Positions 3,137 through 18,199 of a stretch of 18,199 nucleotides of DNA are shown here, one piece after another (position 1 is the stretch's first letter; each line of letters opens with the position of its first letter). Below the pieces are notes generated by a model that searched no databases, was not told the DNA's origin, and saw only the letters and a program-made list of their open reading frames with translations. The position numbers were made by a program, and so were the translations under genes. The stretch is from Myxococcales bacterium (GTDB taxonomy: Bacteria > Myxococcota_A > Bradymonadia > UBA7976 > UBA1532): assembly GCA_020633555.1 (NCBI GenBank), contig JACKDL010000026.1, positions 64,001 to 82,199 of the forward strand, written 5' to 3'.

Positions 3137-4360
3137 ATGCGCGGGACGACGATGGGGCTGGTGGGGTGCCTGCTGGCCGGGCTGGGGCTGGGCTGCGACG
3201 ACGGCGGCGAGGGGGGCGGCGGCGTGGGCCCGGCCGGGCCTTGCCAGGCGGTGGGGGATCCCATCGCGTTGCCCGCGGCGTCGCGGTTCAAGGCGGCCGC
3301 CCACGGCGACGGCTACCTGGTGGTGGCCGAAGAGGGCGGCTTTGGCTCGGGGCAGTGGGGCACCACGGTCATCGGGGCCGACGGCCAGACCACCCACGTG
3401 GACGGCGCGCCGGGCCGGGATCCGCTGGCCCTGGTGGGCGGCGAGGTGGCCCTGGGGCTGGGGCTGGGGACCCGCTTCGACTTTGAAGAGGAGGTGGCGG
3501 TGCGGGCCTTCGCCAGCGACGGCTGGGCGGCGCCGGCGGAGGGCTTCAGCGCGGCGCCCCCGGCCGAGGCCGAGCTGTTCAACGACGAGGTCGCGCTGGC
3601 CCTGGGCGCGGACGGCACCCTGGTGGTGGCGTGGAGCGCGGGGCGCCCCACGTTGGAGGGGTCGCAGGTCTGGGTGCACCTGAAGCGTCCGGGCGAGCCG
3701 CTGGGCGCCGCCGAGCTGGTGTTCGCGCCCATGGTGGGCGTGCGCGACACGGCCCTGCACCTGGCGGTGGCGGCCGATGGGGCCGTGCACCTGGGCGTCA
3801 CCGCGCGCACCGGTGACACCGTGAGCCTGCTGCACAAGATACGGGAGGTCGACGGGCGCTGGGTGGGGCCCGCCCACGTGGGCCCGGTGCCCGACGCGGT
3901 GGGCAACGCCACCATGACCGGGCTGGTGGGCGGCCCGGCCGGGGTCTTCGCCATGGAGGCCCACGGGGCCGACTACGCGGCGGGCACCGACGGGGCCACG
4001 GTGTTCTACCGGCTCGAGGGCGAAGCCTGGGCCGAGCTGGGCCGGGTGGGGGACGACCGCCCGGTGGTGGTGGGCGCCTCGGCGGCGGCGCTGCCCGACG
4101 GGGTGGTGGCGGCGGTGGGCTACGGCCAGAACAACCTGGACTACCAGGAGAGCCGCGACACGGTGGAGCTGCTGCGCTGCAGCCCCGCCGGTTGCGGGCG
4201 CGCGCTGGTGGTGGCGCCCACGCCGGGGGTCTTCTACGACAACCCGGTGGTGGTCACCCGCGGCGACGCCGGGCTGGTGGTGTGGGCCGCCGAGGGCAAG
4301 GGGCCCGACGGCGTGGAGGCGACCTGGGCCCAGCGCTTCCGCTGCCCCGCGGCGGAGTAG
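3137..4360 (+). CDS. Hypothetical secreted protein or lipoprotein (Gly/Ala/Val-rich, probably beta-rich)
   Basis: ATG at 3137 is preceded by GGGAGA at a 6-nt spacing. N-terminus MRGTTMGLVGCLLAGLGLGCDDGGEGGGG (signal peptide with Cys, lipoprotein-like). High GC3. Recurrent LVVAW/LVVWAAEG-type strands. The upstream GTG at 3107 suggested by the ORF track is less likely. Confidence 0.6.
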   Translation: MRGTTMGLVGCLLAGLGLGCDDGGEGGGGVGPAGPCQAVGDPIALPAASRFKAAAHGDGYLVVAEEGGFGSGQWGTTVIGADGQTTHVDGAPGRDPLALVGGEVALGLGLGTRFDFEEEVAVRAFASDGWAAPAEGFSAAPPAEAELFNDEVALALGADGTLVVAWSAGRPTLEGSQVWVHLKRPGEPLGAAELVFAPMVGVRDTALHLAVAADGAVHLGVTARTGDTVSLLHKIREVDGRWVGPAHVGPVPDAVGNATMTGLVGGPAGVFAMEAHGADYAAGTDGATVFYRLEGEAWAELGRVGDDRPVVVGASAAALPDGVVAAVGYGQNNLDYQESRDTVELLRCSPAGCGRALVVAPTPGVFYDNPVVVTRGDAGLVVWAAEGKGPDGVEATWAQRFRCPAAE

Positions 4361-4438
4361 GCGCCGTAGGCCAGGTCCGGTGCGACGGCGTGCGGGGCGG
4401 CCTGCTAGGCTGACTGCCTGGGTGCCAGAGGGGTGGTC

Positions 4439-5032
4439 ATGACCGCGGCAGGGAAGATGGAGCGCATGTCCGAGGCCGAGTACCTGGCCTGGGAGGCCGA
4501 GCAGGCGGGCAAGCACGAGTGGCTGAACGGCGAGATCGTCGCCATGTCGGGGGCGCGGGCGCTGCACAACCTGCTGGTGGCGAACCTTGTCCGTGCCTTG
4601 CAACGGGGGTTGGACGGGCGGCCCTGCGATGTCCTGGGCAGTGACCAGCGGGTGATGGTGGCCGACTCCACCATGTACGCCTACCCCGATCTGATGGTGG
4701 TGTGTGGCCAGCCGGTGCTCAGCCCCACCGATCGGATGAGCCTGACCAACCCCACGGTGGTGGTGGAGGTGCTCTCGCCGTCCACCGAGGCCCACGACCG
4801 CGGCGCCAAGTTCGCCCACTACCGCCAGCTCCCCAGCCTGCAGGCCTATGTGCTCGTGAGCACCGAGCTGGATCGGGTGGAGGTCTTCGAGCGCGACGGG
4901 GCTGAGTGGCGCTTCCGCGAGGCCGGTGCGTCGGTGCGCCTGGACTGCCTGAGCCTGACCCTGAGCATGGCCGAGGTCTATTGGCGCGCCGATCTGTACC
5001 GCGCCGCCGAGGCCGAGGCCGCGGCGGAATAG
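4439..5032 (+). CDS. Uma2 family endonuclease (DUF820, restriction-endonuclease-like fold)
   Basis: The sequence has the family hallmarks EYLAWEAEQAGKHEWLNGEIV..MSGA...HNLLVANLVRAL, YPDLMVVCG, PTVVVEVLSPSTEAHDRGAKFAHYRQLPSLQAYVLV and LDRVEVFER. A GAGGGG RBS lies 6 nt before the ATG at 4439. The track ORF starts at GTG 4433. Confidence 0.8.
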   Translation: MTAAGKMERMSEAEYLAWEAEQAGKHEWLNGEIVAMSGARALHNLLVANLVRALQRGLDGRPCDVLGSDQRVMVADSTMYAYPDLMVVCGQPVLSPTDRMSLTNPTVVVEVLSPSTEAHDRGAKFAHYRQLPSLQAYVLVSTELDRVEVFERDGAEWRFREAGASVRLDCLSLTLSMAEVYWRADLYRAAEAEAAAE

Positions 5033-5122
5033 CCCCCGCCGTGCGCCCCCGGCCGGCTCCGTGGCATCGACTGCCGTGCTCGGTGTAGAACCCCGCGGCA
5101 ACCCCATCCCTCGGAGCGACCC

Positions 5123-5743
5123 ATGCTGACCCGCCGTCGGATCCTCGCTGGCCTCGTGGCCCTGACCGCCCTGGCCGTGGCCGCCCCCACCCTCGCGGGC
5201 CGCCGCGACAGCAAGCCCGCCCACGAGCAGGCCCTGGGCCAGCTCATCAACAACGTGCGCTACGGGCAGGACAACACCGCCCTGACCTTCCTGGACGGCC
5301 CGCTGCAGGGGCCCGTGCTGCTGGGCGACGCCTGGGGCAAGGGCACGGCCGAGCAGCAGGCGGAGTTCATCAAGCTGTTCCACCACCTGTTCGCGGCGGT
5401 GGCCTTCCCGAAGATGCGCGACAGCTTCCAGCACCTGACCACGGTGACCTACGACGCCCCCAAGGCGGCGGGGGACCGGATCGAGGTGGGCAGCGTGCTG
5501 CACATCCAGGCGGGCCCGAAGGAGCAGGAGCTGAAGCTGGTGTACTCGCTGAGCAAGGCGGCCGACGGCGCCCTGAAGGTGGTGGACGTGACCATCGTGG
5601 GCGAGGCGTCGATGCTGGCGAGCATCCGCGACGATCAGATCACCCCGATCATGGCCGAGGGCGGCTGGCCCAAGCTGCTGGAGCTGCTGCGGGCCCGCGC
5701 CAAGGACCTGCCGGCCATTGTCGATCAGCCGCTGAAGAAGTAG
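5123..5743 (+). CDS. Periplasmic MlaC/Ttg2D-family (HpnM-like) lipid-binding protein with a twin-arginine signal peptide
   Basis: 206 aa. N-terminus MLTRRRILAGLVALTALAVAAPTLAG (Tat-type RR motif plus hydrophobic core). Size and the C-terminal VVDVTIVGEASMLASIRDDQITPIMAEGGWPKLLELLRARAK resemble the MlaC/Ttg2D C-terminal region. It lies immediately upstream of an MMPL transporter, as in hpnM-hpnN pairs. GGAG RBS. Confidence 0.6.
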   Translation: MLTRRRILAGLVALTALAVAAPTLAGRRDSKPAHEQALGQLINNVRYGQDNTALTFLDGPLQGPVLLGDAWGKGTAEQQAEFIKLFHHLFAAVAFPKMRDSFQHLTTVTYDAPKAAGDRIEVGSVLHIQAGPKEQELKLVYSLSKAADGALKVVDVTIVGEASMLASIRDDQITPIMAEGGWPKLLELLRARAKDLPAIVDQPLKK

Positions 5744-5807
5744 CGCGCCGCACCAAGCCCTGACCCATGAACCAGCCGCGCGGCCGCGCGGAAAGGCCAC
5801 CCCCTCG

Positions 5808-8288
5808 ATGGCGAATCGGATCGTGAACGCCTGGTCGAGCCTGCTGGTGCGGCGCCCCGGCGCGGTGCTGCTGGCCGTGATGCTGCTGGCGGTGGCCGCC
5901 GGCGGGGCCGCCAGCCGCCTGACCATCAACACCAACCAGCTCGACCTCATCAGCCAGGATCTGCGGCAGGTGAAGGACGTGAAGCGGGTGGTGGACATGG
6001 TGGGCGGCGCCGGCCACCTGATCCTGGCCCTGCGCGGCACCGACGAGACGCTGCTGAAGGCGGCGGCGGACGAGGTGCACGACCTGCTCATCGCCGACAA
6101 GGCCCACATCCGCGAGATCACTTACAAAGTGCCCGTGGACTTCGTGCGGAAGCGCGCCGCGCTCTTCATGAAGACCGAGGACCTGGCCGAGGTGAAGACG
6201 CGGGTGATGCTGAAGGTGAAGGACGCCATGAAGCGGGCCAGCCCGTTCTTCGTGGAGATCCGTCCGACGCCGCCCTACGAGCTGAAGCTCGACGACATCG
6301 TCGAGAAGTACAAGCGGGTGGGGAAGAAGAGCATCACCGACGACTACTACATCAGCGACGACCGGCAGATGGTGCTGCTGCTGCTCAAGCCCATGTGGGA
6401 TTCGAACCAGCTCGGCGAGACGGGCGAGCTCACCGCGTCCATCCGCAAGACGCTGGCCGAGTACAGCCAGCGCAACGGGCACGGGATCACGATCGTCGAG
6501 GACGCCAGCAGCGAGCCGGCGGCGGATCCCAAGACCATCGAGTTCGGCTTCACCGGCACCTACCAGACCAACTACGACGACAGCTTCCAGATCCAGGCGT
6601 CGCTGGCGCCCGTGAGCCTGCTGTCGCTGGGCGGCGTGGCGCTGATGCTGCTGCTGTTCTTCGGCCGCCACGTCACCGCCATCGGGCTGGTGATCAGCGG
6701 GCTGCTCATCGGGGTGGCGCTGACCTTCGGCTTCGCCTGGCTGGCGGTGGGGCAACTGAACCTGATCACCGTCATCCTGGGCGGGATCCTCATGGGCATC
6801 GGCATCGACTTCGGCATCCACTTCGTCTACCGGCTGAAGCTGGAGCTGGGCGCGGGGCTGGCGGTGGACGAGGCGGTGGCCGAGACGGTGCGCCGCTCCG
6901 GGCCGGCGTCGCTGGCGTCGGCGGCGGGCACGGGGGCGGCCTTCCTGTCGCTGCTGTTCTCGGAGTTCCGTGGCTTCAGCGAGTTCGGGCTGCTGGCGGG
7001 CGCCGGCGTGTTCCTCACCGGCGGCGTGATGTACCTGTGGGTGCCGGCCTGCGTGGTGTGGCTGGAGCGTCGCGCGCCGGGGCTGGCCCGCAGGCTGGTG
7101 GGCACCCGCGCGCCGGCGGATCCGGCGGCCGAGGCGGGGGCCCACGGCGCCTGGGCCCGGGTGCTGCTGTGGGGCTCGGTGCTGGGCTTCGGGGCCCTGG
7201 CCGCCTTCGCGCCCGGCGTGAAGTTCGAGTACAACACCCGCGCGCTGATGGTGGAGGACCAGCCCAGCATCCGCCTGCAGGACGAGGTGAACGCGCGCTT
7301 CCAGATCAGCGCCGATCCGGTGGCGGTGTACACGCCCACCCTGGAAGGGGCCAAGCAGGTGTTCGACCTGTTCAACCCCCTGGATCCACAGCGCTTCAGC
7401 ACGGTGGATCAGGTGGTGTCCATGTACACCTTCGTGCCGCCGGCCGAGCAGCAGCAGGCCAACGCGAAGATCCTGGCCGAGTGGCGCAACGAGCTGGCGA
7501 AGATCGACCGCAAGAAGCTGCCCGCGGACGCCGAGAAGCAGCTCGACGAGGGCCTGCCCTACCTGCAGGTGGAGCCCTACGGCCTGGACGGCATCCCCGA
7601 CCTGTACAAGGGCATGTTCACCCACCTGCCGAGCACGAAGCCCGAGAACCACGGCTACCTGACCTTCGTGTACCCGGTGGTGGATCTGTGGGACGGCAAG
7701 CAGATGCTGAAGTTCGGCGACGAGGTGGAGAACCTGACCGTGGCCGACGGCACCACCTACCACGCCGCGGGGCTGCCCATCCTGTTCGCCAAGCTGGCCC
7801 GCATCGTGCTGTACGACGGCAAGCTGACGGTGGCGCTGACGGGGGCGTTCTTGCTGCTGATCCTGCTGCTGGATCTGCGCCGGCCGGTGAGCGTGGCCGT
7901 GGCCCTGCTGCCGCTGCTGGTGGGCCTGGGGGTCATGCTGGGGGTGATGGCGCTGGGCGACTTCCAGCTCAACTTCATGAACGTGGTGGTGTTCCCCATC
8001 GTGCTGGGCTACGGCGTGAGCCACGGCGTGTACCTGATGCACCGCTTCCAGGAGGGGGTGAGCCCCACCGAGGCGCTGCGATCGGTGGGCGCGGCGGTGG
8101 CGTGCAGCACGCTGACCACCCTGGCGGGCTGGGCCGGGCTGCTGGCGGCCAGCCACCGCGGCCTGAAGTCCATGGGCATCATGGCGTGCCTGGGCATGGC
8201 GGCCACCCTGGTGGTGTCGGCCACGCTGATGGCGGCGGTGCTGCAGATCCTGCACGAGCGGCGGCTGCGCAAGGGGGCTGCGGCGTGA
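5808..8288 (+). CDS. MMPL-family RND superfamily exporter (HpnN-like lipid transporter)
   Basis: 826 aa. An N-terminal TM helix is followed by a periplasmic domain, five TM helices (one carrying GIGIDFGIHFVYR, a GxxxD proton-relay-like motif), a second periplasmic domain and six more TM helices. This is the classic duplicated RND/MMPL topology. High GC3. Confidence 0.9.
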   Translation: MANRIVNAWSSLLVRRPGAVLLAVMLLAVAAGGAASRLTINTNQLDLISQDLRQVKDVKRVVDMVGGAGHLILALRGTDETLLKAAADEVHDLLIADKAHIREITYKVPVDFVRKRAALFMKTEDLAEVKTRVMLKVKDAMKRASPFFVEIRPTPPYELKLDDIVEKYKRVGKKSITDDYYISDDRQMVLLLLKPMWDSNQLGETGELTASIRKTLAEYSQRNGHGITIVEDASSEPAADPKTIEFGFTGTYQTNYDDSFQIQASLAPVSLLSLGGVALMLLLFFGRHVTAIGLVISGLLIGVALTFGFAWLAVGQLNLITVILGGILMGIGIDFGIHFVYRLKLELGAGLAVDEAVAETVRRSGPASLASAAGTGAAFLSLLFSEFRGFSEFGLLAGAGVFLTGGVMYLWVPACVVWLERRAPGLARRLVGTRAPADPAAEAGAHGAWARVLLWGSVLGFGALAAFAPGVKFEYNTRALMVEDQPSIRLQDEVNARFQISADPVAVYTPTLEGAKQVFDLFNPLDPQRFSTVDQVVSMYTFVPPAEQQQANAKILAEWRNELAKIDRKKLPADAEKQLDEGLPYLQVEPYGLDGIPDLYKGMFTHLPSTKPENHGYLTFVYPVVDLWDGKQMLKFGDEVENLTVADGTTYHAAGLPILFAKLARIVLYDGKLTVALTGAFLLLILLLDLRRPVSVAVALLPLLVGLGVMLGVMALGDFQLNFMNVVVFPIVLGYGVSHGVYLMHRFQEGVSPTEALRSVGAAVACSTLTTLAGWAGLLAASHRGLKSMGIMACLGMAATLVVSATLMAAVLQILHERRLRKGAAA

Positions 8289-8884
8289 GCGGGGCGGGGT
8301 GGCGACGGGCGCTGCTGTGCGGGGCGGCCCTGGGCGGCCTGGCGGCCTGCTCCCCGGTCAAGGAGACCTGGGTGCGGCCGGACTACAAGCAGGTGGACCG
8401 CACCAAGACGCTGCGCATCTCGGTGGTGACGGCGCCGGCGCCTGCGGGCGAGGCGAAGCTGGGGGAGCTCTGGTCGGCACTGGCGCGGACCTACATCAAC
8501 CAGCACCGTGACTTCATCGTGGTCGAGGACTACACCGATCAGGCGGTGCCGGCAGACGTGTGCAATGGGAACCTCGAGGGGTTCCTGCACTTCACGCCGA
8601 CGGTGAAGGCCCGCGCCGGCGGCGCCGAGGCGGCCCTCGAGGCGGTGCTCGTGCGCTGCCACGACCGCGAGCCCGTGTGGCGGGCCTCGGCGGCCGGCGA
8701 CTGGGACAGCGACGACGACGATCTGGACGAGGCGAAGCGCCACTGGACGGGGCGCTTCGGCGACGGCATCGCGGCCTGGGTGGTGCCCAGCTACCGGCTG
8801 ATCACGGGCACGTGCGAGGCGCTGCCCGAGCCCGAGCTGCCCACCGAGGCGTACATCCGCGAGAAGATCCAACTGGGGGAGTGA
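8285..8884 (+). CDS. Uncharacterised lipoprotein, translationally coupled to the MMPL gene
   Basis: The GTG at 8285 overlaps the MMPL TGA stop (GTGA). An AGGGGG RBS lies upstream. N-terminus VSGAGWRRALLCGAALGGLAAC|S has a canonical lipobox (LAAC). About 180 aa mature, soluble and acidic (DWDSDDDDLDE). It is the in-frame 3' part of track ORF 6395..8884, whose upstream part is artefact. Confidence 0.7.
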   Translation: MSGAGWRRALLCGAALGGLAACSPVKETWVRPDYKQVDRTKTLRISVVTAPAPAGEAKLGELWSALARTYINQHRDFIVVEDYTDQAVPADVCNGNLEGFLHFTPTVKARAGGAEAALEAVLVRCHDREPVWRASAAGDWDSDDDDLDEAKRHWTGRFGDGIAAWVVPSYRLITGTCEALPEPELPTEAYIREKIQLGE

Positions 8885-8919
8885 CCTGCGGGTCACGGGA
8901 CGAGAAAGGGCCTTCGCCG

Positions 8920-9783
8920 ATGGCAGGCTTTGACATCAAGCGGTTCCTGGAGCTGGCGGGCGCGGTGAAGACCGACGACCTGGACTGGGACGCCTGCGCC
9001 AAGGCGGGCCTCACCCCGCACGAGGCGCGCATCCTGCGCTACATGGCCGACACCGAGTCGCACACCATCCTGTACATGCGCGACCTGCTGGCCGGGCACA
9101 GCACGCGCGATCCCGCCATCACCGCCTTCCTGTCGGTGTGGGTGTACGAGGAGCTCTGCCACGGCCGCGCCCTGAGCAAGGTGCTGGAGGTGTGCGGCTA
9201 CCCCGAGGCCGAGGATCACTACACGCAGGTGACCACGGGCAGCTCCATGCGCGAGCTGATGGAGGCGGTGCTGAGCCACGGCGCCGCCTACCTGACGCCC
9301 AAGTTCATCGCGGTGCACATGACCTGGGGCGCCATCAACGAGGCGGCGGCGGCGGTGGCCTACCAGCGCCTGGAGAAGCTCACGGCCAACCCCGTGCTGG
9401 CCACGCTGTGCAACCGCATGGCGCGCCAGGAGCGGCGGCACTTCAGCTTCTACTACCACCAGGCCAAGGCCCGCATGGAGGGCGACCGGGTGGCACAGTT
9501 CCTCACCTACACGGCCATCAAGCGCTTCTGGACGCTGGTGGGCTCGGGGGTGGCGGGGGACGACAACCTGGCCTTCGTGGCGGCCCACCTGTTCCCCGAT
9601 GAGGCCTCGCTGGCCATCCTGGACAAGGCCGAGAAGCCCATCCGCGATCTGCCGCGGCTGGACTGGTTCCACGGGGTCACCGAGGGCACCCGGGCCAAGG
9701 CCGCGGAGTGGCGGGCGGCCAACGGCGAGCCCGCAGCCTGGCCCGCGCCGCCCGTCCTGGAGCCCCAGGCGGCCGCCTCGTGA
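8920..9783 (+). CDS. Ferritin-like diiron-carboxylate protein, soluble acyl-ACP desaturase-like (FA_desaturase_2-type) oxygenase or desaturase
   Basis: 287 aa from the ATG at 8920, with a GAAAGGG RBS. The two EXXH motifs WVYEELCHG (compare EENRHG) and ARQERRHFSF (compare DEKRH) sit in helical context. Additional candidate Glu ligands are ADTESH and RELMEAV. No TM segments. The first ~120 codons of track ORF 8560..9783 overlap the upstream lipoprotein gene out of frame and are rejected. Confidence 0.65.
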   Translation: MAGFDIKRFLELAGAVKTDDLDWDACAKAGLTPHEARILRYMADTESHTILYMRDLLAGHSTRDPAITAFLSVWVYEELCHGRALSKVLEVCGYPEAEDHYTQVTTGSSMRELMEAVLSHGAAYLTPKFIAVHMTWGAINEAAAAVAYQRLEKLTANPVLATLCNRMARQERRHFSFYYHQAKARMEGDRVAQFLTYTAIKRFWTLVGSGVAGDDNLAFVAAHLFPDEASLAILDKAEKPIRDLPRLDWFHGVTEGTRAKAAEWRAANGEPAAWPAPPVLEPQAAAS

Positions 9784-10160
9784 TCGCCGGCGAGGTGCCC
9801 GCGGGCCTGAAGCGCTGGTTCGTGGTGCACTTCGTGGCGGACTGGCTGTTCGCCCTGCCGCTGTTCTTCGCCCCGGCCTGGTTCCTGGGTCTGCTGGGCT
9901 GGACGACCGTGGATCCCGCCACCGCCCGGCTGGTGGCGGCGGCGCTGGTGGGCATCGGCACCCAGAGCCTCATCGGCAAGGAGGCGTCGCTGGACGCCTA
10001 CCGGGGGATGCTGAACCTGAAGATCCTGTGGTCGGCGTCGGCCACGGCGGGCCTGGTGTGGTCGGCCTTGGAGGGCGGCCCCGCCATGCTGTGGGGCTTC
10101 GTGGCCGTGTTCGGCGGCTTCAACGCCCTGTGGGTGTACTGGCGGCGCCGGATCGCCTGA
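9780..10160 (+). CDS. Small polytopic membrane protein (about 4 TM), function unknown
   Basis: The GTG at 9780 overlaps the TGA of the diiron gene (GTGA). It encodes 126 aa with 3-4 hydrophobic helices (WFVVHFVADWLFALPLFFAPAWFLGLLGW, LVAAALVGIGTQSLIG, ILWSASATAGLVWSAL, MLWGFVAVFGGFNALWVYW). The alternative ATG at 9708 would overlap the diiron gene by 75 nt. Confidence 0.5.
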   Translation: MIAGEVPAGLKRWFVVHFVADWLFALPLFFAPAWFLGLLGWTTVDPATARLVAAALVGIGTQSLIGKEASLDAYRGMLNLKILWSASATAGLVWSALEGGPAMLWGFVAVFGGFNALWVYWRRRIA

Positions 10161-10226
10161 TCGCGCGGTGCAGCGCGGCGCCTTCCGGGCTGGCCGGCGC
10201 GCGGACGCGGTGCTACCTCTTCGCGT

Positions 10227-11126
10227 ATGAACCGCAACATCGTGATGGTGGGGGCCGGGATCGTCGCCGTGGGCGCGTTCCTGGCCGTCTGGCTGCTGGG
10301 GGGCGAGGCCGAGATGGCCGAGGGCTCCACCCCGCGGACGATCCAGGGGACGGAGGGTGAGGCGGCGCCGCCCGCGCCGCTGCCGGTGCTGGGCAGCTCG
10401 GGACGCCCCGATGACCCGGAGCCGGCGCCTGCGGAAGGGCCCCGGCCGAAGGGCGCCGCCGAGCTGGCGCAGGCGCTGGTGGCGAAGCACAACCGGCCCG
10501 ATGGCTCGCTGCCGATGGATCCCGTGGGCGGCGACGCCGGGGTCCCCGAGGGCTGGGCCGAGGGGGACGCGCTGCCGCCGATCCCGATGATCCGCTTCGT
10601 GGCCGATCGCGAGGGCATCCAGGCCGCGGTGCAGGAGCGCAAGCGCCAGATCCAGGAGTGCTACGACGGCTGGGCGAAGTCGCCCGACGCGCCCGAGGGC
10701 AAGATCGTGGCGCGGTTCACCATCGCGCCCGGCGGGCCGGGCATGCCGGCACAGATCAAGGACGCCGGGCTGACGGCGAGCGGGCTGAACCACCTGGCCA
10801 TGGAGGGCTGCGTGCTCAACGCCCTGGAGGGCTTGGGCTTCGAGTCGCCCGAGGGCGAGGTCACCGTCAACTACCCGTTCACCTTCAAGCGGACGGGGCC
10901 GGCAGCGGCGGCGCCCGGCGGCGATCCGGCCGCGGCCATGCCGGAGCCGGGCGCTGAGCCGCCGCCCCCGCCGGGCGATCTGCCGGCGGCCTTCGAGCCG
11001 CCCCCCACCGACGTGCCGCCCGCCGGGGCGCCCACCGATCCGCCGCCCGCCGAGGATCCGCCGCTGCCCGATGTGCCGCCCTCGACGCTGCCCGCGGGGG
11101 ATCCACCGCCGGTGGACGATCCCTGA
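10227..11126 (+). CDS. Membrane-anchored protein with an AgmX/PglI-type C-terminal domain and a Pro-rich tail
   Basis: An N-terminal TM segment (IVMVGAGIVAVGAFLAVWLLGG) is followed by an acidic/Pro linker. Next comes a ~90-aa domain, IQAAVQERKRQIQECYDGW...GKIVARFTIAPGG...MEGCVLNALEGLGFESPEGEVTVNYPFTFK. It aligns residue-for-residue (CY, CVL, YPFxF) with the C-terminus of the gene at 16388-18199. The tail is a PPxP-rich 80 aa. Confidence 0.7.
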   Translation: MNRNIVMVGAGIVAVGAFLAVWLLGGEAEMAEGSTPRTIQGTEGEAAPPAPLPVLGSSGRPDDPEPAPAEGPRPKGAAELAQALVAKHNRPDGSLPMDPVGGDAGVPEGWAEGDALPPIPMIRFVADREGIQAAVQERKRQIQECYDGWAKSPDAPEGKIVARFTIAPGGPGMPAQIKDAGLTASGLNHLAMEGCVLNALEGLGFESPEGEVTVNYPFTFKRTGPAAAAPGGDPAAAMPEPGAEPPPPPGDLPAAFEPPPTDVPPAGAPTDPPPAEDPPLPDVPPSTLPAGDPPPVDDP

Positions 11127-11184
11127 TCGCCGGCGGGCACTCAGCCTTGCGGGCCCTGCCCCACGGCGTTAGCGTCGCCGCCCG

Positions 11185-11787
11185 ATGAGCCGGCGCTTCG
11201 ACCTGACCCCCACCACCGCGTTCTGGGCCTTCGTGGGCCTGCTGACGGCCTGCGGGCTGTACTTCACCGTCGAGGTGGTCCGCTACCAGAGCGCCCGCCG
11301 GGTGGCCCCCACCCAGGCGCCGCTGCGGGCCGGCGAGCCCATCGAGCTGGTGACGGTCATCGACGGCGACGAGCTGACGGCCCGGCGGGGCGACGAGGCC
11401 TTCGTGCTGCGGTTGCTGGGGGTGAAGTGCCCCATGGGCGACGGCGACGGCGCGCTGGCCGTGCACGGGCGCACCTGCCGCGACGCGCTGAGGGGCGCGC
11501 TGGCGAGCGGCACCCTCACCCTGGACTTCGACGGCGAGACCGGCGGCGTGGATCGCCACGGGCGGGTGCTGGGCTATGTGATGGCCGGGCGGCTGGATGT
11601 GGGGGCGGCCCTGGTGAAGCGCGGCGCGCTGGTGGCCTACACTGCCTACCCCTTCGGGCGTGAGGCCGCCTACCTGGCCGCAGAGGCCGAGGCGCGCGCC
11701 CAGGGCCGCGGCCTGTGGGCCGATCCGCAGGCGGTGGCCCAGGTGGACGCCCTGAAGCTCGCCTGGGCGAGCCAGCGGAGCGAGTGA
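11185..11787 (+). CDS. Membrane-anchored thermonuclease (SNase/micrococcal-nuclease-like) family protein
   Basis: An N-terminal TM segment (FWAFVGLLTACGLYFTVEVV) is followed by an SNase-like domain (VTVIDGDELTARRGDEAFVLRLLGVKCP...LTLDFDG...DRHGRVLGYVM.GRLDVGAALVKRGALVAYTAYPF...AEAEARAQGRGLWA). Some canonical catalytic positions look substituted (DTPE is replaced by KCPM). Confidence 0.6.
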   Translation: MSRRFDLTPTTAFWAFVGLLTACGLYFTVEVVRYQSARRVAPTQAPLRAGEPIELVTVIDGDELTARRGDEAFVLRLLGVKCPMGDGDGALAVHGRTCRDALRGALASGTLTLDFDGETGGVDRHGRVLGYVMAGRLDVGAALVKRGALVAYTAYPFGREAAYLAAEAEARAQGRGLWADPQAVAQVDALKLAWASQRSE

Positions 11788-11788
11788 C

Positions 11789-12850
11789 GTGCGGCGCCTG
11801 CTCCACGCCCTGTGGCTGCGGCTGCAGCACAGCTACGGCACCCAGCTCTTCCGGCTGGCGGTGCTGATCGCCGCCATCCTGTTCTTCAGCTCGTCGGGGC
11901 TGCTGTACTTCGAGATGCACGGGCGCCCCGATCTGAGCTGGGGCGACGCCGTGTGGTGGTCGGTGGTGACCATGACCACCGTGGGCTACGGGGATCTGTT
12001 CCCCGAGACGGTGGCGGGGCGCTACCTCATCGGCTTCCCCACCATGCTGTTCGGGATCAGCATCCTGGGCTACGTGCTGTCGATCACCGCGAGCGTGCTC
12101 ATCGAGGTACGCACCAAGGAGCTGCGGGGCATGAGCGACGTGACCTTCGAGGACCACTTCCTGCTGGTGCACTGGCCGGGGCTGGGCCGAGCCCAGGCGG
12201 TGGTGGGCGAGCTGCGGGGCGATCCGAAGACGGCGCGCACGCCCATCGTGCTCATCGACGACCGGCTCGAGGAGCTGCCCGAGAGCCTCGCCCGGCTGGG
12301 CGTGAGCTTCGTGCGGGGCAACCCCACCAAGCTCGACACCCTGGAGCGAGCCCACTACCAGAAGGCCAAGCAGGCGCTGGTGCTGGCCCGCGACCAGCTC
12401 GATCCGGCGAGCGATCACGCGACGCTGGCGGCGGTGCTGACCATCGAGCAGCTCCGCCCCGAGATCAACACCACGGGCGAGTGCGTGGATCCCGACAACC
12501 TGGAGCTGTTCGCCCGCGCGGGCTGTGACGACATGGTGTGCATCGCCCAGCTCAGCTCGAACCTGCTGGTGCAGGAGGCGCTGGATCCGGGCGTGCAGGG
12601 GCTGCTGCAGGAGATCACCAGCAACACCTACGGGCAGAGGGTGTTCGTGGTGCCCATCCGGGCCATGGGCACCTGGCGCTACCAGGAGCTGCTGGACGCC
12701 TTCAGCGGGGCCGACGTGCTGTGCATCGGCCTGCGCCACGAGGACGGGATGGAGCTGAACCCCGCGCCCGGGGCCCGGGTGCGGCAGGGCGACCGGCTGG
12801 TGTGCATCGCGCGGCAGCGGCCCGCGGAGTACGCCCCGGCGGCGAGCTGA
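11789..12850 (+). CDS. Two-TM potassium channel with a C-terminal RCK (TrkA-N-like) domain, MthK-like
   Basis: The GTG start sits 2 nt after the upstream stop. Two TM helices flank a pore helix with the selectivity filter TTVGYGD. A cytoplasmic Rossmann-like RCK region follows (HFLLVHWPGLGRAQAVV...PIVLIDD...VRGNPT). Confidence 0.85.
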   Translation: MRRLLHALWLRLQHSYGTQLFRLAVLIAAILFFSSSGLLYFEMHGRPDLSWGDAVWWSVVTMTTVGYGDLFPETVAGRYLIGFPTMLFGISILGYVLSITASVLIEVRTKELRGMSDVTFEDHFLLVHWPGLGRAQAVVGELRGDPKTARTPIVLIDDRLEELPESLARLGVSFVRGNPTKLDTLERAHYQKAKQALVLARDQLDPASDHATLAAVLTIEQLRPEINTTGECVDPDNLELFARAGCDDMVCIAQLSSNLLVQEALDPGVQGLLQEITSNTYGQRVFVVPIRAMGTWRYQELLDAFSGADVLCIGLRHEDGMELNPAPGARVRQGDRLVCIARQRPAEYAPAAS

Positions 12851-12854
12851 GCCC

Positions 12855-13088
12855 TCAGCCCGCGAACGGGGGCACGGGCTTGTAGCCGGCGTCCATGGGG
12901 GGCACGGGCTTGTAGCCGGCGTCCATGGGGGGCACGGGCTTGAAGCCGACGACCATGGGGGGCACGGGCTTGTAGCCGGCGTCCATGGGGGGCACGGGCT
13001 TGTAGCTCAGGTCGCTCTGCTGGGGGCCGGTGGCGGCCAGGACCGGCGAGGACAGGGCGAACAGGAACAGCAGGGCGAAGCGCTTCAT
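12855..13088 (-). CDS. Small Sec-secreted peptide made of five tandem YKPVPPMDAG decapeptide repeats
   Basis: 77 aa. MKRFALLFLFALSSPVLA|ATGPQQSDLS, then YKPVPPMDAG, YKPVPPMVVG, FKPVPPMDAG, YKPVPPMDAG, YKPVPPMDAG and YKPVPPFAG. The signal peptide is canonical with an AxA cleavage site. A GGAGG RBS lies 7 nt upstream of the ATG. The stop is 4 nt from the K+ channel stop (convergent). Confidence 0.7.
   Translation of the reverse strand: MKRFALLFLFALSSPVLAATGPQQSDLSYKPVPPMDAGYKPVPPMVVGFKPVPPMDAGYKPVPPMDAGYKPVPPFAG
12868..13007. repeat. Direct tandem array of ~4.5 copies of a 30-bp unit (ggcacgggcttgtagccggcgtccatgggg). It encodes the decapeptide repeats.
   Basis: The units start at 12871, 12901, 12931, 12961 and 12991. 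Copies 1, 2 and 4 are identical. Copy 3 has 4 substitutions. Copy 5 diverges after 16 nt. Confidence 0.9.
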
Positions 13089-13199
13089 GGGAGCCTCCAG
13101 GGTCAGGGTTCGCTCCCTCTTCCTGGAGCGCGTCGTCCTCCCTTTTGGCTCCAGACACTTTTCCCGGTCAGCCTGCGGATCGCAGCCCCGAGCCGCTGC
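13089..13199 (-). promoter_or_regulatory. Intergenic leader between the GNAT gene and the repeat-peptide gene, carrying nested inverted repeats. It may act as terminator, promoter or 5'-UTR structure.
   Basis: On the minus strand it reads ctggagc-N18-gctccagg-N20-cctggagg. The second stem includes the RBS. The segment is relatively AT-richer (cttttggctccagacacttttccc). There is no U-tract, so it is not a classic intrinsic terminator. Confidence 0.3.
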
Positions 13200-13735
13200 T
13201 CAGGAGAGGATCTCGGGCGGGGGCGGCGGGCGCTCGAAGCCGCGGCGCTGACAGCGGAACAAGAGGCGGTCGGCCCGGGGCGGGGCGGCGGGGGCGTCCA
13301 CGCCGGTGGCCACCTGCTCGAAGCCGAAGCTGCGGTGCAGCGCGATGCTGGGGCGGTTGGCCGCGGTGGTGGTGTACAGCACCGTGTCGGTGCGCTTGTC
13401 CAGCCACTCCAGGCGGCGCTTCGTGAGGGCGCGGCCGATGCCCAGCCGTCGCCAGCCCTCGGCCACGCGCACGCCCTGCAGGTACCAGCCCGTGGGGATG
13501 CGATCGGGGCCGCTGAAGGGGCGCTCGATCCAGCTCGCCCGGGCCACGGCCACCACGCCCTCGGCCACCTCGGCCAGCACCAGGAAGGTCTGGTCCGCCG
13601 GCACGCGCACGGCGAAGTCATGGGCCAGCCGGTCGGCCGTGGCCTGCGGCTCGCTGCCGGGCGGGGTCTGGAACTCCAGCATGGCCGGGATGTCGGCGGC
13701 GGTGGCCAGCCGGACCCGGTAGCTGCCGCCATCGC

Positions 13736-13739
<4 letters not shown>
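13200..13739 (-). CDS. GNAT-family N-acetyltransferase
   Basis: The GTG at 13737-13739 overlaps the upstream TGA (GTGA). It encodes 179 aa. LATAADIPAMLEF is followed by motif-A-like WRRLGIGRALTKRRLEWL and a C-terminal NRPSIALHRSFGFEQV. It is the in-frame C-terminal portion of track ORF 13200..14738, whose N-terminal 330 aa are an out-of-frame artefact across the hydrolase gene. Confidence 0.8.
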
Positions 13740-15075
<1,336 letters not shown>

Positions 15076-15076
<1 letters not shown>

Positions 15077-16356
15077 CACTCGCCGACCACGGTCCGTGTG
15101 ACGTCGTCGCCCCCGAAGTCGCTGGCCGGATCCAGCAGAGCGGCGTCGGTGTCGTCACCCAGCACGTGCCGCTTCAGGAAGGCCATGGCCAGGCCATTGA
15201 TGATGGGGTAGGCCTCGGCCACCGGCAGGAAGTCGGGGCCGCAGCCGTCGTTGGCGGCCACCTCGACGGGCAGGTCGCAGGCGTTGCTGAAGCTGAAGTG
15301 GCCCGCGTTGGGGAAGTCAACCCGCAGGCTGTCGGGCTGGGTGATGCCCGCCCACAGGGGGTCGCCCTCGGCGGCGTTGGGCAGGGTGGCGTCGCGGCCG
15401 GCGGTCATCATCAGCGTGGGCGTCTGCACCCCCGCCAGGCCGGGCTCGCCCCCGAACAGCGTGTTGCCGGCGGGGGTCATGGGGATCAGCGCCTGGAAGC
15501 GGTCGTCGGCGAAGCCCGCGCGGAAGCGGTCGGCCGCCCGCACGGTGAAGGCGCAGGCCTCCTCCTGGCCCGCGGGCGGGGCCTCGCAGGCGGCGAGCAG
15601 GGCGTCGACGGCATAGCCGGCGCCTCCCACTGCAAGCGTGGTGTAGCCACCGAAGCTGTGGCCGGCCAGCGCGCGCAGGCTGGGGTGGACCCGCCCGGCC
15701 AGCGGGTGATCGGCCGGCAGGGCGTCCACGTAGTCGGCCACCGCGTGGATGTCGGTGGGCCGCAGCTCGAACAGGCGCCAGAAGTCGGCTGAGCTGTCGG
15801 TGAAGGTGTTGCCGGTGTGATCGGGCGCCACCACCACCCAGCCGTGGCTGGCCAGGAACTCGGTGAAGAAGTAGCTCTGCTCGCCGAAGCCCCCGTTGCC
15901 GTGGCTGAACACCAGCACCGGCGCGTCGGCCAGATCGGCCAGGGGCGGGGCGCCGCCGAACACCTCGGGGCGTAGCAGCAGGTTGCCGTAGCGCACCCGC
16001 TCGCCCTCGCTGGCGGCCGTGGGGTACCACCAATGCAGGTCGAGCGGGCGCGGGGCCTCGAGCTCGGGCGCCGCGTACTCGATGGTCTCGACGTGGAAGC
16101 CGACGGCGAAGGGCCCCGGCTCGCCGGGGGCGGGCGGGTCCATGTCCGGGGGGGCCATGTCGGGCGCCATGTCGGCCGGGGCCATGTCGGCCAGGGCCAT
16201 GTCGCCCGCGCCCTGATCGGCCACCGCCTGATCGGCGCCGGCGTCCGCGGTGACGGCCCCGTCGGCGCCCTGCTGGGCGGGCGCGGGATCGCCGTCGTCG
16301 CAGCCGACGGTCAGCGTGAGGGCGAGCAGGGCGAGGGCAGAGCGGGTTCGGAGCAC
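15076..16356 (-). CDS. Secreted alpha/beta-hydrolase lipoprotein, PAF-acetylhydrolase-like, paralog 2
   Basis: The GTG at 16354-16356 has GAGG 5 nt upstream. N-terminus MLRTRSALALLALTLTVGCDD. A DMAP-repeat acidic linker follows. Then WWYPT, VLVFSHGNGGFGEQSYFFTEFLASHGWVVVAPDHTG and GHSFGG. About 45% identity to paralog 1 over the catalytic domain. The track ATG at 16440 would overlap the upstream gene by 53 nt and adds a non-signal-like N-terminus, so it is rejected. Confidence 0.8.
16138..16240. repeat. Short imperfect tandem repeats (units gccatgtcgg and cctgatcggc) encoding the DMAP/ADQ acidic linker of hydrolase paralog 2
   Basis: gccatgtcgggc, gccatgtcggccgg, ggccatgtcggccag and ggccatgtcgccc are followed by ccctgatcggccaccgcctgatcggc. 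The analogous ggcgtcgggctc x2.5 repeat at 14848-14884 encodes the DAEP linker of paralog 1. Confidence 0.6.
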
Positions 16357-16387
16357 GGGGACCTCGGGGCGCTTGGATCGGGCCGGC

Positions 16388-18199
16388 CTATTGGCTCGGG
16401 CTGAAGATGAACGGGTACGCGATGACGCACTCGCCCCCATCGGGCGGGGCCGGGAAGCGGGTGCTGCGGATCACGCCAAGGACACACTCGGCCACCGCGG
16501 CGTCGCCCAGGGTCGAGGACTTGACCTTGGCGCTGCGCACCTCGCCCTGGGGGGTGATGCGCCACTCCACGGTGAGCTTGCCCGACAGCGCGGCAGACTT
16601 GAGCAGGGCCCTCTCGTAGCAGCCCACCACCTTGCCCTGGTGCTGATCCACCGCCGTGCGCACCTGCCCCTTGCTGAGGCTGCAGCTCGACACCTTGGTG
16701 CGGCTGGACAGGTTGCGGACCTTGCCGCGGATGCGGCCGGCGCCCTTGGTGGTCTTCTCGCCCAGGCGACCCACGCGGGCGCCGATCTGCTGGCCCCCGG
16801 TGGTGGCCAGGGGCGCCTGGTCGCGGCCGATGTTCACGTCGCCGCCCGGCAGCGGGGCGCCCACCCCGGGCACCTCCAGGGCGGCGCCGGTGGCGCCCGC
16901 CTTGCCGACGGCGTCGATGTTGCTGGCCACGTCCTTCAAGGTCACGTCGTCGCCCGTGGGGGCGGCGTCGGCGCCCGCGTTGACCGCCGACAGCAGGGCC
17001 TCGGCGTCACCCTGCGCCTGCTGACGCGCGCGCTGCATCTTCCGGCGCACCTTCTGGCGCACCGAGGACGGGAGCTGGGGCGTGGCCTCGGCGGGATCCG
17101 AGGGCCGGGGCGCGGGGGCCTCCTTCGCCTTCGGCGCGCGCTCGGGCCGGGGCTTCGGCGGCTTGGGTGGCGGCGCCTTGGGCTTCGGCTTCGGCTTGAT
17201 CTTCGGCAGCTCCCGGGCGTCCTTCAGGCTGGCGAAGCGCTCCTTGGGCGGGGGCTTGGCCACCGTGAGCTGCACGCCCACCGCGTCCAGCGACACCACG
17301 CCCAGGGCGAACAACAGGTGGAGCACCGCGCCCGCGCCGAGCGCGCCCAGGTACACCCCCCATGGCTTGCGGCGGCCGGTGGCGCGGCCCGCGTCCCGCG
17401 CGGCGTGATCCACGCGGATCCGCCAGGTGGCCTGGGCCCAGCGCAGCTCGGCCCGATCGCCGGGCTCCAGGGGCATCTCGCTGGGGCCTTCGGGCACGGT
17501 CTCGCTGGCGCCCAGGTGCATGCGGCGGCCGGTGGCGCCCGCGGGGATGCACAGGACCACCCCCTGCCCGGTGTGACGCACCACCGGCTGGCCCCGCGGG
17601 AACCGGTCGCGGCTGTGGAGCACCTGCGAGGCGGCCACCACCCCGTCGACGATCCGCGCCACCTCCACCACCACGCCGCCCTGGCGATCGCCGGTGGGGC
17701 GGCCGCTGGTCAGGTCGCCCAGGATGGCGTCCAGGTGCTCTACGGCCGGCGGGCGTGGGGGCTCGGGATCGGCCCAGATGCTCGGCTCGAACCCGTCGGG
17801 GGGCAGGGTCAGGGCGCCGCGGGCCGGGGGCCGCCGACGGGGCTCGGCCTCGGGCGGGCGCACGGCGAAGAGCAGGTCGGTGAACTCGCCCGAGTCCACG
17901 GTGCGCTCGGACAGCGGGCCGGGCGCCTGGGGGCCCGGAACCACGGGCCCCGGGACCGAGCGAGTGGGCTCCTGGCTGGCGCTCGTGGCCTCGCCGGGCA
18001 CCCGGGTGGGCTCCTGCGAGTCGTCCCCCGGCCGCATGGGCACCTGCGCCGTGGGCTCGTCGGTGCCACGGGCCGGGTGGGCGAAGCCGGCGGCCCGTTG
18101 CGGCGCGGCGTGCAGGCGCGTGGGGTCGTCCTCGCCGGGGCTGGGCAGGGGCGCGGTGACCCGCGGCGGCACCAGCGGGGCGATCTCGCCGGGCGGCGT
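16388..18199 (-). CDS. PglI/TonB-like bitopic membrane protein. It has a cytoplasmic N-terminal region, one TM helix, a Lys/Pro-rich spacer and an AgmX/PglI-type C-terminal domain. The 5' end probably lies beyond the window.
   Basis: The frame is open to the window edge. The track start at 18172 is an internal GTG. Architecture: N-terminal ~280 aa with a possible degenerate FHA-like segment (PGDRAELRWAQATWRI), a TM helix (VYLGALGAGAVLHLLFALGVV), the spacer KIKPKPKPKAPPPKPPKPRPERAPKAKEAP, and a C-terminus VRTAVDQHQGKVVGCYERAL...AECVLGVIR...GGECVIAYPFIFS matching the domain in the 10227-11126 gene. Stop at 16388. Confidence 0.7.
   Translation of the reverse strand, partial: TPPGEIAPLVPPRVTAPLPSPGEDDPTRLHAAPQRAAGFAHPARGTDEPTAQVPMRPGDDSQEPTRVPGEATSASQEPTRSVPGPVVPGPQAPGPLSERTVDSGEFTDLLFAVRPPEAEPRRRPPARGALTLPPDGFEPSIWADPEPPRPPAVEHLDAILGDLTSGRPTGDRQGGVVVEVARIVDGVVAASQVLHSRDRFPRGQPVVRHTGQGVVLCIPAGATGRRMHLGASETVPEGPSEMPLEPGDRAELRWAQATWRIRVDHAARDAGRATGRRKPWGVYLGALGAGAVLHLLFALGVVSLDAVGVQLTVAKPPPKERFASLKDARELPKIKPKPKPKAPPPKPPKPRPERAPKAKEAPAPRPSDPAEATPQLPSSVRQKVRRKMQRARQQAQGDAEALLSAVNAGADAAPTGDDVTLKDVASNIDAVGKAGATGAALEVPGVGAPLPGGDVNIGRDQAPLATTGGQQIGARVGRLGEKTTKGAGRIRGKVRNLSSRTKVSSCSLSKGQVRTAVDQHQGKVVGCYERALLKSAALSGKLTVEWRITPQGEVRSAKVKSSTLGDAAVAECVLGVIRSTRFPAPPDGGECVIAYPFIFSPSQ

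Follow-up and report, generated by a model that had tools for sequence, protein, structure and literature searches.

Proteins of the ferritin-like diiron superfamily have a common fold and diverge widely in sequence and function (PMC9314684). R2lox co-purifies with C16/C18 hydroxy fatty acids and its function is not yet established (PMC9314684). In the field of lipid transport, a route formed by HpnN, the MlaC-like protein HpnM, and the lipoprotein HpnS was recently proposed for hopanoids (PMC12324291). The published model has no diiron enzyme, with 0 occurrences of desaturase, ferritin, or diiron (PMC12324291). The DNA stretch of 18,199 nucleotides (nt) studied here, hereafter the window, comes from a Myxococcales bacterium (contig JACKDL010000026.1, positions 64,001 to 82,199). 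It carries at 8920-9783 (+) a gene coding for a predicted soluble diiron protein, preceded on the same strand by genes for an MlaC-like protein, an RND transporter, and a lipoprotein. We tentatively favour the reading that this protein is a cytoplasmic diiron (or possibly Mn/Fe) oxidase modifying a lipid of the adjacent export route, to which it would be an accessory in this lineage.

The window has about 72% GC and long spurious open reading frames (ORFs) are frequent, real genes being told apart by third-position GC. This value is 0.96-1.00 across 8920-9783 (+), with a switch of the coding frame at about 8900, and the ORF is a genuine coding gene. Its start is ATG 8920 rather than GTG 8560 because the 40 aligned homologs all share that Met (MAGFDI); the third-position GC signal also rules out the 407-amino-acid (aa) ORF opened by GTG 8560. 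The same product of 287 aa is predicted by independent gene calling on three metagenome contigs. Kyte-Doolittle hydropathy does not exceed 1.18 in any 19-residue stretch, so that no transmembrane helix is predicted. Length and solubility thus agree with the first-pass annotation of the locus.

The only E-x-x-H motifs of the protein are EELCHG and QERRHF. With E46 and E141 they provide six Glu/His candidates for metal binding, at the following positions:

9055-9057 (+): codon of E46, predicted ligand in the first bundle helix (residues 33-47), invariant in 40/40 aligned and 70/70 genome-derived homologs
9148-9165 (+): EELCHG box, aa 77-82 (E77, E78, H81, G82), in the helix of residues 65-91
9340-9342 (+): codon of E141, predicted ligand in the helix of residues 127-154, kept in 71/72 genome-derived homologs
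9427-9444 (+): QERRHF box, aa 170-175, in the helix of residues 158-186, with E171 kept in 71/72 and H174 in 72/72 genome-derived homologs

Residues E46, E77, E78, H81, E141, E171, and H174 are invariant in the 40 homologs, together with W74, W136, N140, Y148, R166, Y178, and R185. Among 72 genome-derived homologs (34-70% identity; Myxococcota, Actinomycetota, Rokubacteria, and Binatia) the six ligand positions are kept in 70/70, 71/72, 71/72, 71/72, 71/72, and 72/72 sequences, the sole exception being a degenerate tandem paralogue. Because of this invariance and retention, the pair of ExxH motifs is, as judged from sequence comparison, not a product of chance. The AlphaFold2 model is all-helical (pLDDT 91.4; pTM 0.89) and positions the ligands on four long helices in the order E / ExxH / E / ExxH. 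As modelled, the protein is a member of the ferritin-like diiron-carboxylate superfamily, whose hallmark is a four-helix bundle with that ligand order, and the diiron site supposed at first pass finds its six candidates on the predicted bundle.

Acyl-acyl carrier protein (acyl-ACP) desaturases are the nearest solved relatives of the protein, in a remote relationship confined to the metal-binding core. Sequence identity is 14-17%, with TM-scores of 0.52-0.58. The best match among PDB sequences is Mycobacterium tuberculosis DesA2 (PDB 1za0), which the single sequence finds at E 0.13 and the family profile at E 0.0067; a plant desaturase is found by the profile at E 0.58. DesA2 aligns its DEVRHE with QERRHF; the sequence signal is very weak (15-19 bits), the protein is deposited only as a 'possible' desaturase, and its genomic setting is unlike that of the diiron gene. 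Aligned by hhalign to castor stearoyl-ACP delta-9 desaturase (PDB 1oq4/1afr, PF03405; sequence 1oq4_A, identity confirmed over 363/363 residues), the family profile gives a probability of 21.6% and E 0.001 over 111 columns. The alignment pairs EELCHG and QERRHF with castor EENRHG and DEKRHE, upholding the likeness to desaturase boxes on which the first-pass annotation was built. Residues E77/E78-H81-G82 correspond to castor E142/E143-H146-G147, W74 to W139, E141 to E196, E171-H174 to E229-H232, and Y178 to Y236. The pairing of E46 with castor E105 lies outside the hhalign block; E46 is invariant, sits on the expected helix, and would be the equivalent of E105. With E46 so placed, the predicted ligand register would be superimposable on castor E105, E143, H146, E196, E229, and H232. 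The castor enzyme also differs from the diiron protein. The two are 14% identical, the Pfam profile is matched in its central third only, the castor protein is about 75 residues longer (60-75 for plant desaturases overall), and the first two Glu ligands are 32 residues apart (E46-E78) compared to 38 in castor. The diiron family forms its own cluster set of 1,188 representatives, and no ACP or fatty-acid-synthesis genes lie near the diiron gene. A tblastn/phmmer search of the window and of 83 loci, taken with about 6 kb of flanking DNA, detected no AcpP-like ORF; its E. coli AcpP query is itself unvalidated.

Acyl-ACP desaturases, DesA2, R2lox, and aldehyde-deformylating oxygenases are the top four structural neighbours, and all of them bind long aliphatic substrates. 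For R2lox and the ribonucleotide reductase (RNR) R2 subunit (PF00268), the diiron protein has no match to the Ribonuc_red_sm profile and the structural score is below that of the desaturase. Since superfamily members share a fold yet differ widely in function, the chemistry cannot be fixed by fold rank alone.

The protein is identical to a protein from a metagenome-assembled genome (MAG) that NCBI calls 'acyl-ACP desaturase [Myxococcales bacterium]'. Its 1,705 word-indexed homologs bear clashing names (rubrerythrin, phenylacetyl-CoA epoxidase subunit, ferritin-like, hypothetical), and NCBIfam has no model for the family. Clustered at 50% identity, the family counts 1,188 representatives at E <= 1e-3 in an exhaustive profile search, of which 696 reach E <= 1e-10 (cluster representatives are given P-numbers below). 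The profile searches suggested at first pass divide in their outcome: PF03405 (FA_desaturase_2) is matched above its gathering score (28.4 bits versus 22.7) only over profile positions 97-219 of 325, and the AurF-like side gives no hit. Neither the window protein nor any of 40 family members matches the AurF, PaaA_PaaC, or RNR small-subunit Pfam families at E <= 0.01. At the same threshold, PF03405 is found in 32/40 relatives (best E 3e-08) and Rubrerythrin (PF02915) in 31/40; in the window protein Rubrerythrin (19.6 bits) and COQ7 score slightly under their cutoffs. We conclude that the protein belongs to a separate, uncharacterised desaturase-like family, membership in the acyl-ACP desaturases being not demonstrated. 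The longer members P0144, P0171, P0223, P0230, P0232, P0234, and P0257 were inspected for domain fusions; they have no extra Pfam domain and are uninformative. Georgenia satyanarayanai (genome locus L046) has tandem copies of the family at L046:4468-5244 and L046:5256-6101, the second of which lost four of the six ligands (pattern E-Q-L-A-K-H). This tandem resembles the pairing of a catalytic and a degenerate subunit in PaaA/PaaC. Similar degenerate patterns are found in P0193, P0212, P0257, P0265, and P0268. A literature search on MXAN_6521, TIGR04455, and bacterial soluble-desaturase-like families returned a proteomics listing of MXAN_6521 and nothing functional.

The diiron gene belongs to a tight block of five co-oriented genes:

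5123-5743 (+): MlaC-like periplasmic lipid-binding protein, 206 aa, first gene of the module (PF05494)
5808-8288 (+): RND transporter of MMPL/HAE3 type, HpnN-like, 826 aa (PF03176, TIGR03480)
8285-8884 (+): lipoprotein of the MXAN_6521/LA_1396 family, 199 aa (TIGR04455), with lipobox LAAC at aa 19-22
8920-9783 (+): soluble protein of predicted ferritin fold, diiron-carboxylate type, desaturase-like family, 287 aa
9780-10160 (+): small integral membrane protein, 126 aa, about four hydrophobic helices by eye, GTG start

GTGA start/stop overlaps join the RND transporter to the lipoprotein gene and the diiron gene to the gene of the 126-aa membrane protein. A spacer of 35 nt with a Shine-Dalgarno-like AGAAAGG separates the lipoprotein gene from the diiron gene, which is therefore not translationally coupled to the exporter. 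The first-pass annotation was accurate in embedding the gene in a transporter operon, the three transport genes lying upstream on the same strand, and erred in linking it to them by translation. No terminator-like hairpins are present in the intergenic gaps of the block. A sigma-70 promoter scan of 4300-13000 gave no sites and is uninformative for a myxobacterial genome of 72% GC; an Rfam scan of the window gave no RNA family. Directly upstream of the MlaC-like gene lies a gene for a Uma2-family putative endonuclease (4433-5032, +; PF05685, 110 bits) that likely marks the 5' boundary of the module.

The three transport genes have the same layout as the hopanoid model, in which an RND transporter, an MlaC-like protein, and a lipoprotein act together (PMC12324291). 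All three proteins fall short of the cutoffs of the Hpn families. The MlaC-like protein scores 48.1 bits against PF05494 (cutoff 26), and its best NCBIfam match, HpnM (TIGR03481), has 28.1 bits for a cutoff of 160.1. Its N-terminal signal peptide has a twin-arginine-like RRRILAG and a hydrophobic segment at aa 7-25. The RND protein has about 12 hydrophobic segments and matches PF03176 MMPL (98 bits), TIGR03480 HpnN (268.6 bits; cutoff 751.85), BstA (191.7 bits; cutoff 1400), HAE3 TIGR00921 (169.9 bits), and NF052374 (165.6 bits; cutoff 1100), remaining like the MlaC-like protein far under its Hpn cutoff. HpnS is MlaA-like whereas the window lipoprotein belongs to TIGR04455 and has a predicted fold resembling the outer-membrane export lipoprotein PelC. 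A profile search reached 41 homologs of this lipoprotein, compared to only 8 close matches with the single sequence. The window has no hopanoid biosynthesis gene. The trio of MlaC-like protein, MMPL-type RND, and TIGR04455 lipoprotein looks like a lipid-transport module of the envelope that is as yet undescribed and stands on its own.

Genes were called at 80 genome loci with relatives of the diiron protein (L-numbers), their neighbours clustered, and recurrent clusters annotated. No neighbour is conserved throughout the family, and every context maps to one coherent clade. In the clade of the window (56-70% identity; Myxococcota and Bradymonadia MAGs) the diiron gene neighbours the MlaC-like and/or the lipoprotein gene in 9 further genomes, in three architectures. 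It is co-directional with the RND gene at L004, L005, L006, L010, and L014, accompanies the MlaC-like and lipoprotein genes with no RND between at L001-L003, and is divergent from MlaC-RND-lipoprotein at L009. MlaC-like orthologs keep their position at L001-L006, L009, and L014. RND orthologs have 56-71% identity at L004-L006, L009, L010, and L014, and 49-59% at L086-L089. Survival of the linkage through rearrangement argues for a functional tie between the diiron and transport genes. The 126-aa membrane protein, which has no Pfam or NCBIfam match, has an ortholog directly 3' of the diiron gene only at L001, L002, L006, L007, and L008. In Acidimicrobiaceae (L038:6880-7395, L058, L062, L072) a DUF4395 membrane protein gene directly follows the diiron gene. 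A small membrane protein is thus found 3' of the diiron gene in two clades; the two proteins are unrelated, the possibility that the 126-aa protein is a distant DUF4395 having been rejected (hhalign probability 0.3%).

An independent clade from Myxococcaceae and Polyangiales (34-37% identity) has the diiron gene as the last of a same-strand string with gaps of about 10-70 nt. The string codes for a SelA-like pyridoxal phosphate enzyme, an HNH protein, a CDP-alcohol phosphatidyltransferase weakly similar to phosphatidylinositol phosphate synthases, a flippase-like LPG_synthase_TM protein, and the diiron protein (L036:492-6840; also L041, L042, L047, and L066). This string resembles an operon for making some unusual phospholipid and provides a second tie of the diiron family to membrane lipids. 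At L012 a divergent PlsY-domain gene is beside the diiron gene. The remaining contexts are diverse: TetR, a thioester-reductase/HAD protein, and LarC in Streptomyces; a split thiamine pyrophosphate enzyme, a protein of about 500 aa of unknown function, and DUF2229 in Rokubacteria; an extracytoplasmic function (ECF) sigma factor, DUF4395, and an acyl-CoA dehydrogenase in Acidimicrobiia; an ECF sigma factor, epoxide hydrolase, acyl-CoA dehydrogenase, and SDR, or else Hsp33 and DsbD, in Binatia; photolyase and an aldo-keto reductase in Georgenia.

In the model of this cytoplasmic protein, the six invariant residues on four helices form a canonical E / ExxH / E / ExxH dimetal site. By analogy to the superfamily, the reduced site would activate O2 and oxidise a C-H bond of a hydrophobic chain by two electrons, through desaturation or hydroxylation, with electrons supplied by a ferredoxin or reductase encoded elsewhere. 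The genetic context suggests a membrane lipid, or the acyl precursor of one, as the substrate in this Myxococcota lineage. A candidate partner, the small membrane protein translated together with the enzyme, could hold it at the inner membrane. Once modified, the lipid would be the cargo, or a conditioner, of the route composed of the HpnN-like RND, the MlaC-like shuttle, and the PelC-fold outer-membrane lipoprotein, the enzyme being an accessory added to the transport module in this lineage and not a core part of it.

Several observations weigh against an oxidase serving the export route. No reductase or ferredoxin gene is recognised in the operon, and the diiron gene does not overlap the exporter genes. 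The close homologs at L007 and L008 (about 63-67% identity in tblastn or the family alignment) have no transport module and keep the pair of diiron and small membrane protein genes. Conversely, the transport module occurs with no diiron gene in the distant lineages L084-L089, where lipoprotein homologs of 25-36% identity accompany MlaC-like and MMPL genes; tblastn finds no diiron homolog at these loci, and L084 also misses the RND gene. Since the diiron/small membrane protein pair and the transport module each occur alone, they are two independent modules joined in one lineage, and the link of the diiron gene to lipid-export genes holds only in that myxobacterial lineage. Most of the family is found in unrelated contexts, some of them stress-flavoured (ECF sigma factors, Hsp33/DsbD, photolyase). 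Within the protein, the residue two positions past E141 is Ala143 (codon 9346-9348), a position taken by Thr or Ser in 66/72 homologs. Among the sequences checked, Ala143 is found elsewhere only in P0161, P0212, P0213, and P0252. The closest relatives P0002, P0004, and P0005 likewise have Ala at this position in the 40-homolog alignment.

A broader version of the lipid-oxidase reading is doubtful. It holds that the proteins form a new soluble diiron lipid-modifying family acting on complex lipids and not on acyl-ACP, which in one Myxococcota lineage would tailor a dedicated outer-membrane lipid exported via an undescribed pathway of RND, MlaC-like protein, and PelC-fold lipoprotein, and in Myxococcaceae would finish a new phospholipid produced by the operon with the CDP-alcohol phosphatidyltransferase and the flippase.

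A ferritin-like protective, sensing, or ligand-binding role, in handling peroxide or iron as rubrerythrin-type proteins do or as a non-turnover R2lox/DesA2-like protein, is unlikely and would deprive the adjacency to the exporter of mechanistic meaning, against the tie suggested by the rearranged loci. The frequent PF02915 matches and the JGI label 'rubrerythrin' of many members speak for it, as do the ECF sigma factor, Hsp33, DsbD, photolyase, and aldo-keto reductase neighbours of several clades. The clade-dependent contexts, the independence of the transport module from the diiron gene, and the still unestablished function of R2lox (PMC9314684) point in the same direction. We give little credence to a bona fide acyl-ACP desaturase, as the NCBI name has it, which would place a double bond in acyl-ACP in the course of fatty-acid synthesis and whose neighbourhood would merely reflect that unsaturated lipids reach the envelope. 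The castor-like ligand register is common to both proteins, but the partial Pfam match, the short hhalign block with its low probability, the low identity and TM-scores, the preference of the profile for a 'possible' desaturase over the plant enzyme, the shorter chain, and the lack of a detected ACP gene all stand against it, and Rubrerythrin matches are almost as common in the family as those to PF03405. AurF-type enzymes have an extra His ligand one turn (four residues) before the Glu of the second ExxH. An oxygenase for a non-lipid or CoA-activated small molecule, either an N-oxygenase/azoxy synthase (AurF, CmlI, VlmB), as the first-pass annotation also entertained, or an epoxidase (PaaA, BoxB), is improbable: although such enzymes share the superfamily fold, the residue four positions before E171 is not a His, none of the corresponding Pfam families is matched, no secondary-metabolite genes are present in the window, and N-oxygenase and epoxidase folds all score under the desaturase.

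Other genes of the window lie downstream of the module. Proteins encoded at 10227-11126 (+) and 16388-18172 (-) have an AgmX/PglI C-terminal (TonB-C-like) domain, which supports the Myxococcota origin of the DNA; the second resembles gliding-motility GltG, far under the GltG cutoff. A staphylococcal-nuclease-like gene (11185-11787, +) is followed after a 1-nt gap by a gene for an RCK-domain potassium channel (11789-12850, +), a pair conserved on the Logan contigs with the identical diiron gene. Region 12850-13735 has a strong third-position GC coding signal, and the + strand lacks a single long ORF in that frame. The same-frame + ORFs are 12538-12885, mostly overlapping the channel gene, 13030-13251, and 13306-13722; alternatively, genes of the - strand at 12855-13088 and about 13200-13735 could give rise to the signal. 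Either a disrupted gene or short - strand genes may occupy the region. Two tandem, overlapping genes on the opposite strand (13736-15079 and 15076-16440, both -), some 3.5 kb downstream of the module, code for alpha/beta hydrolases with weak, lipase-like matches to PAF acetylhydrolase and chlorophyllase.

Fold, ligand set, and general chemistry of the diiron protein were already known, and the automated NCBI name points the same way. A modest but real novelty is that it belongs to a large distinct family for which no curated model or characterised member was found. Also new are the recurrent association of the family with membrane-lipid genes in two separate myxobacterial clades and the identity of one of its partners, an undescribed module of MlaC-like protein, RND, and PelC-fold lipoprotein. 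The present status is that of a well-founded refinement of annotation and a testable lead; with fold and ligand chemistry of textbook type, it holds no surprise. Delivery of particular lipids to the outer membrane is a largely open question. If the enzyme does modify the exported lipid, the tailoring of lipids in the cytoplasm of diderm bacteria would be tied to one specific path of delivery to the outer membrane. A widespread family, with about 1,200 clusters at 50% identity and members in at least four phyla, would likewise gain a function; its labels in databases vary between acyl-ACP desaturase, rubrerythrin, ferritin-like, and hypothetical protein.
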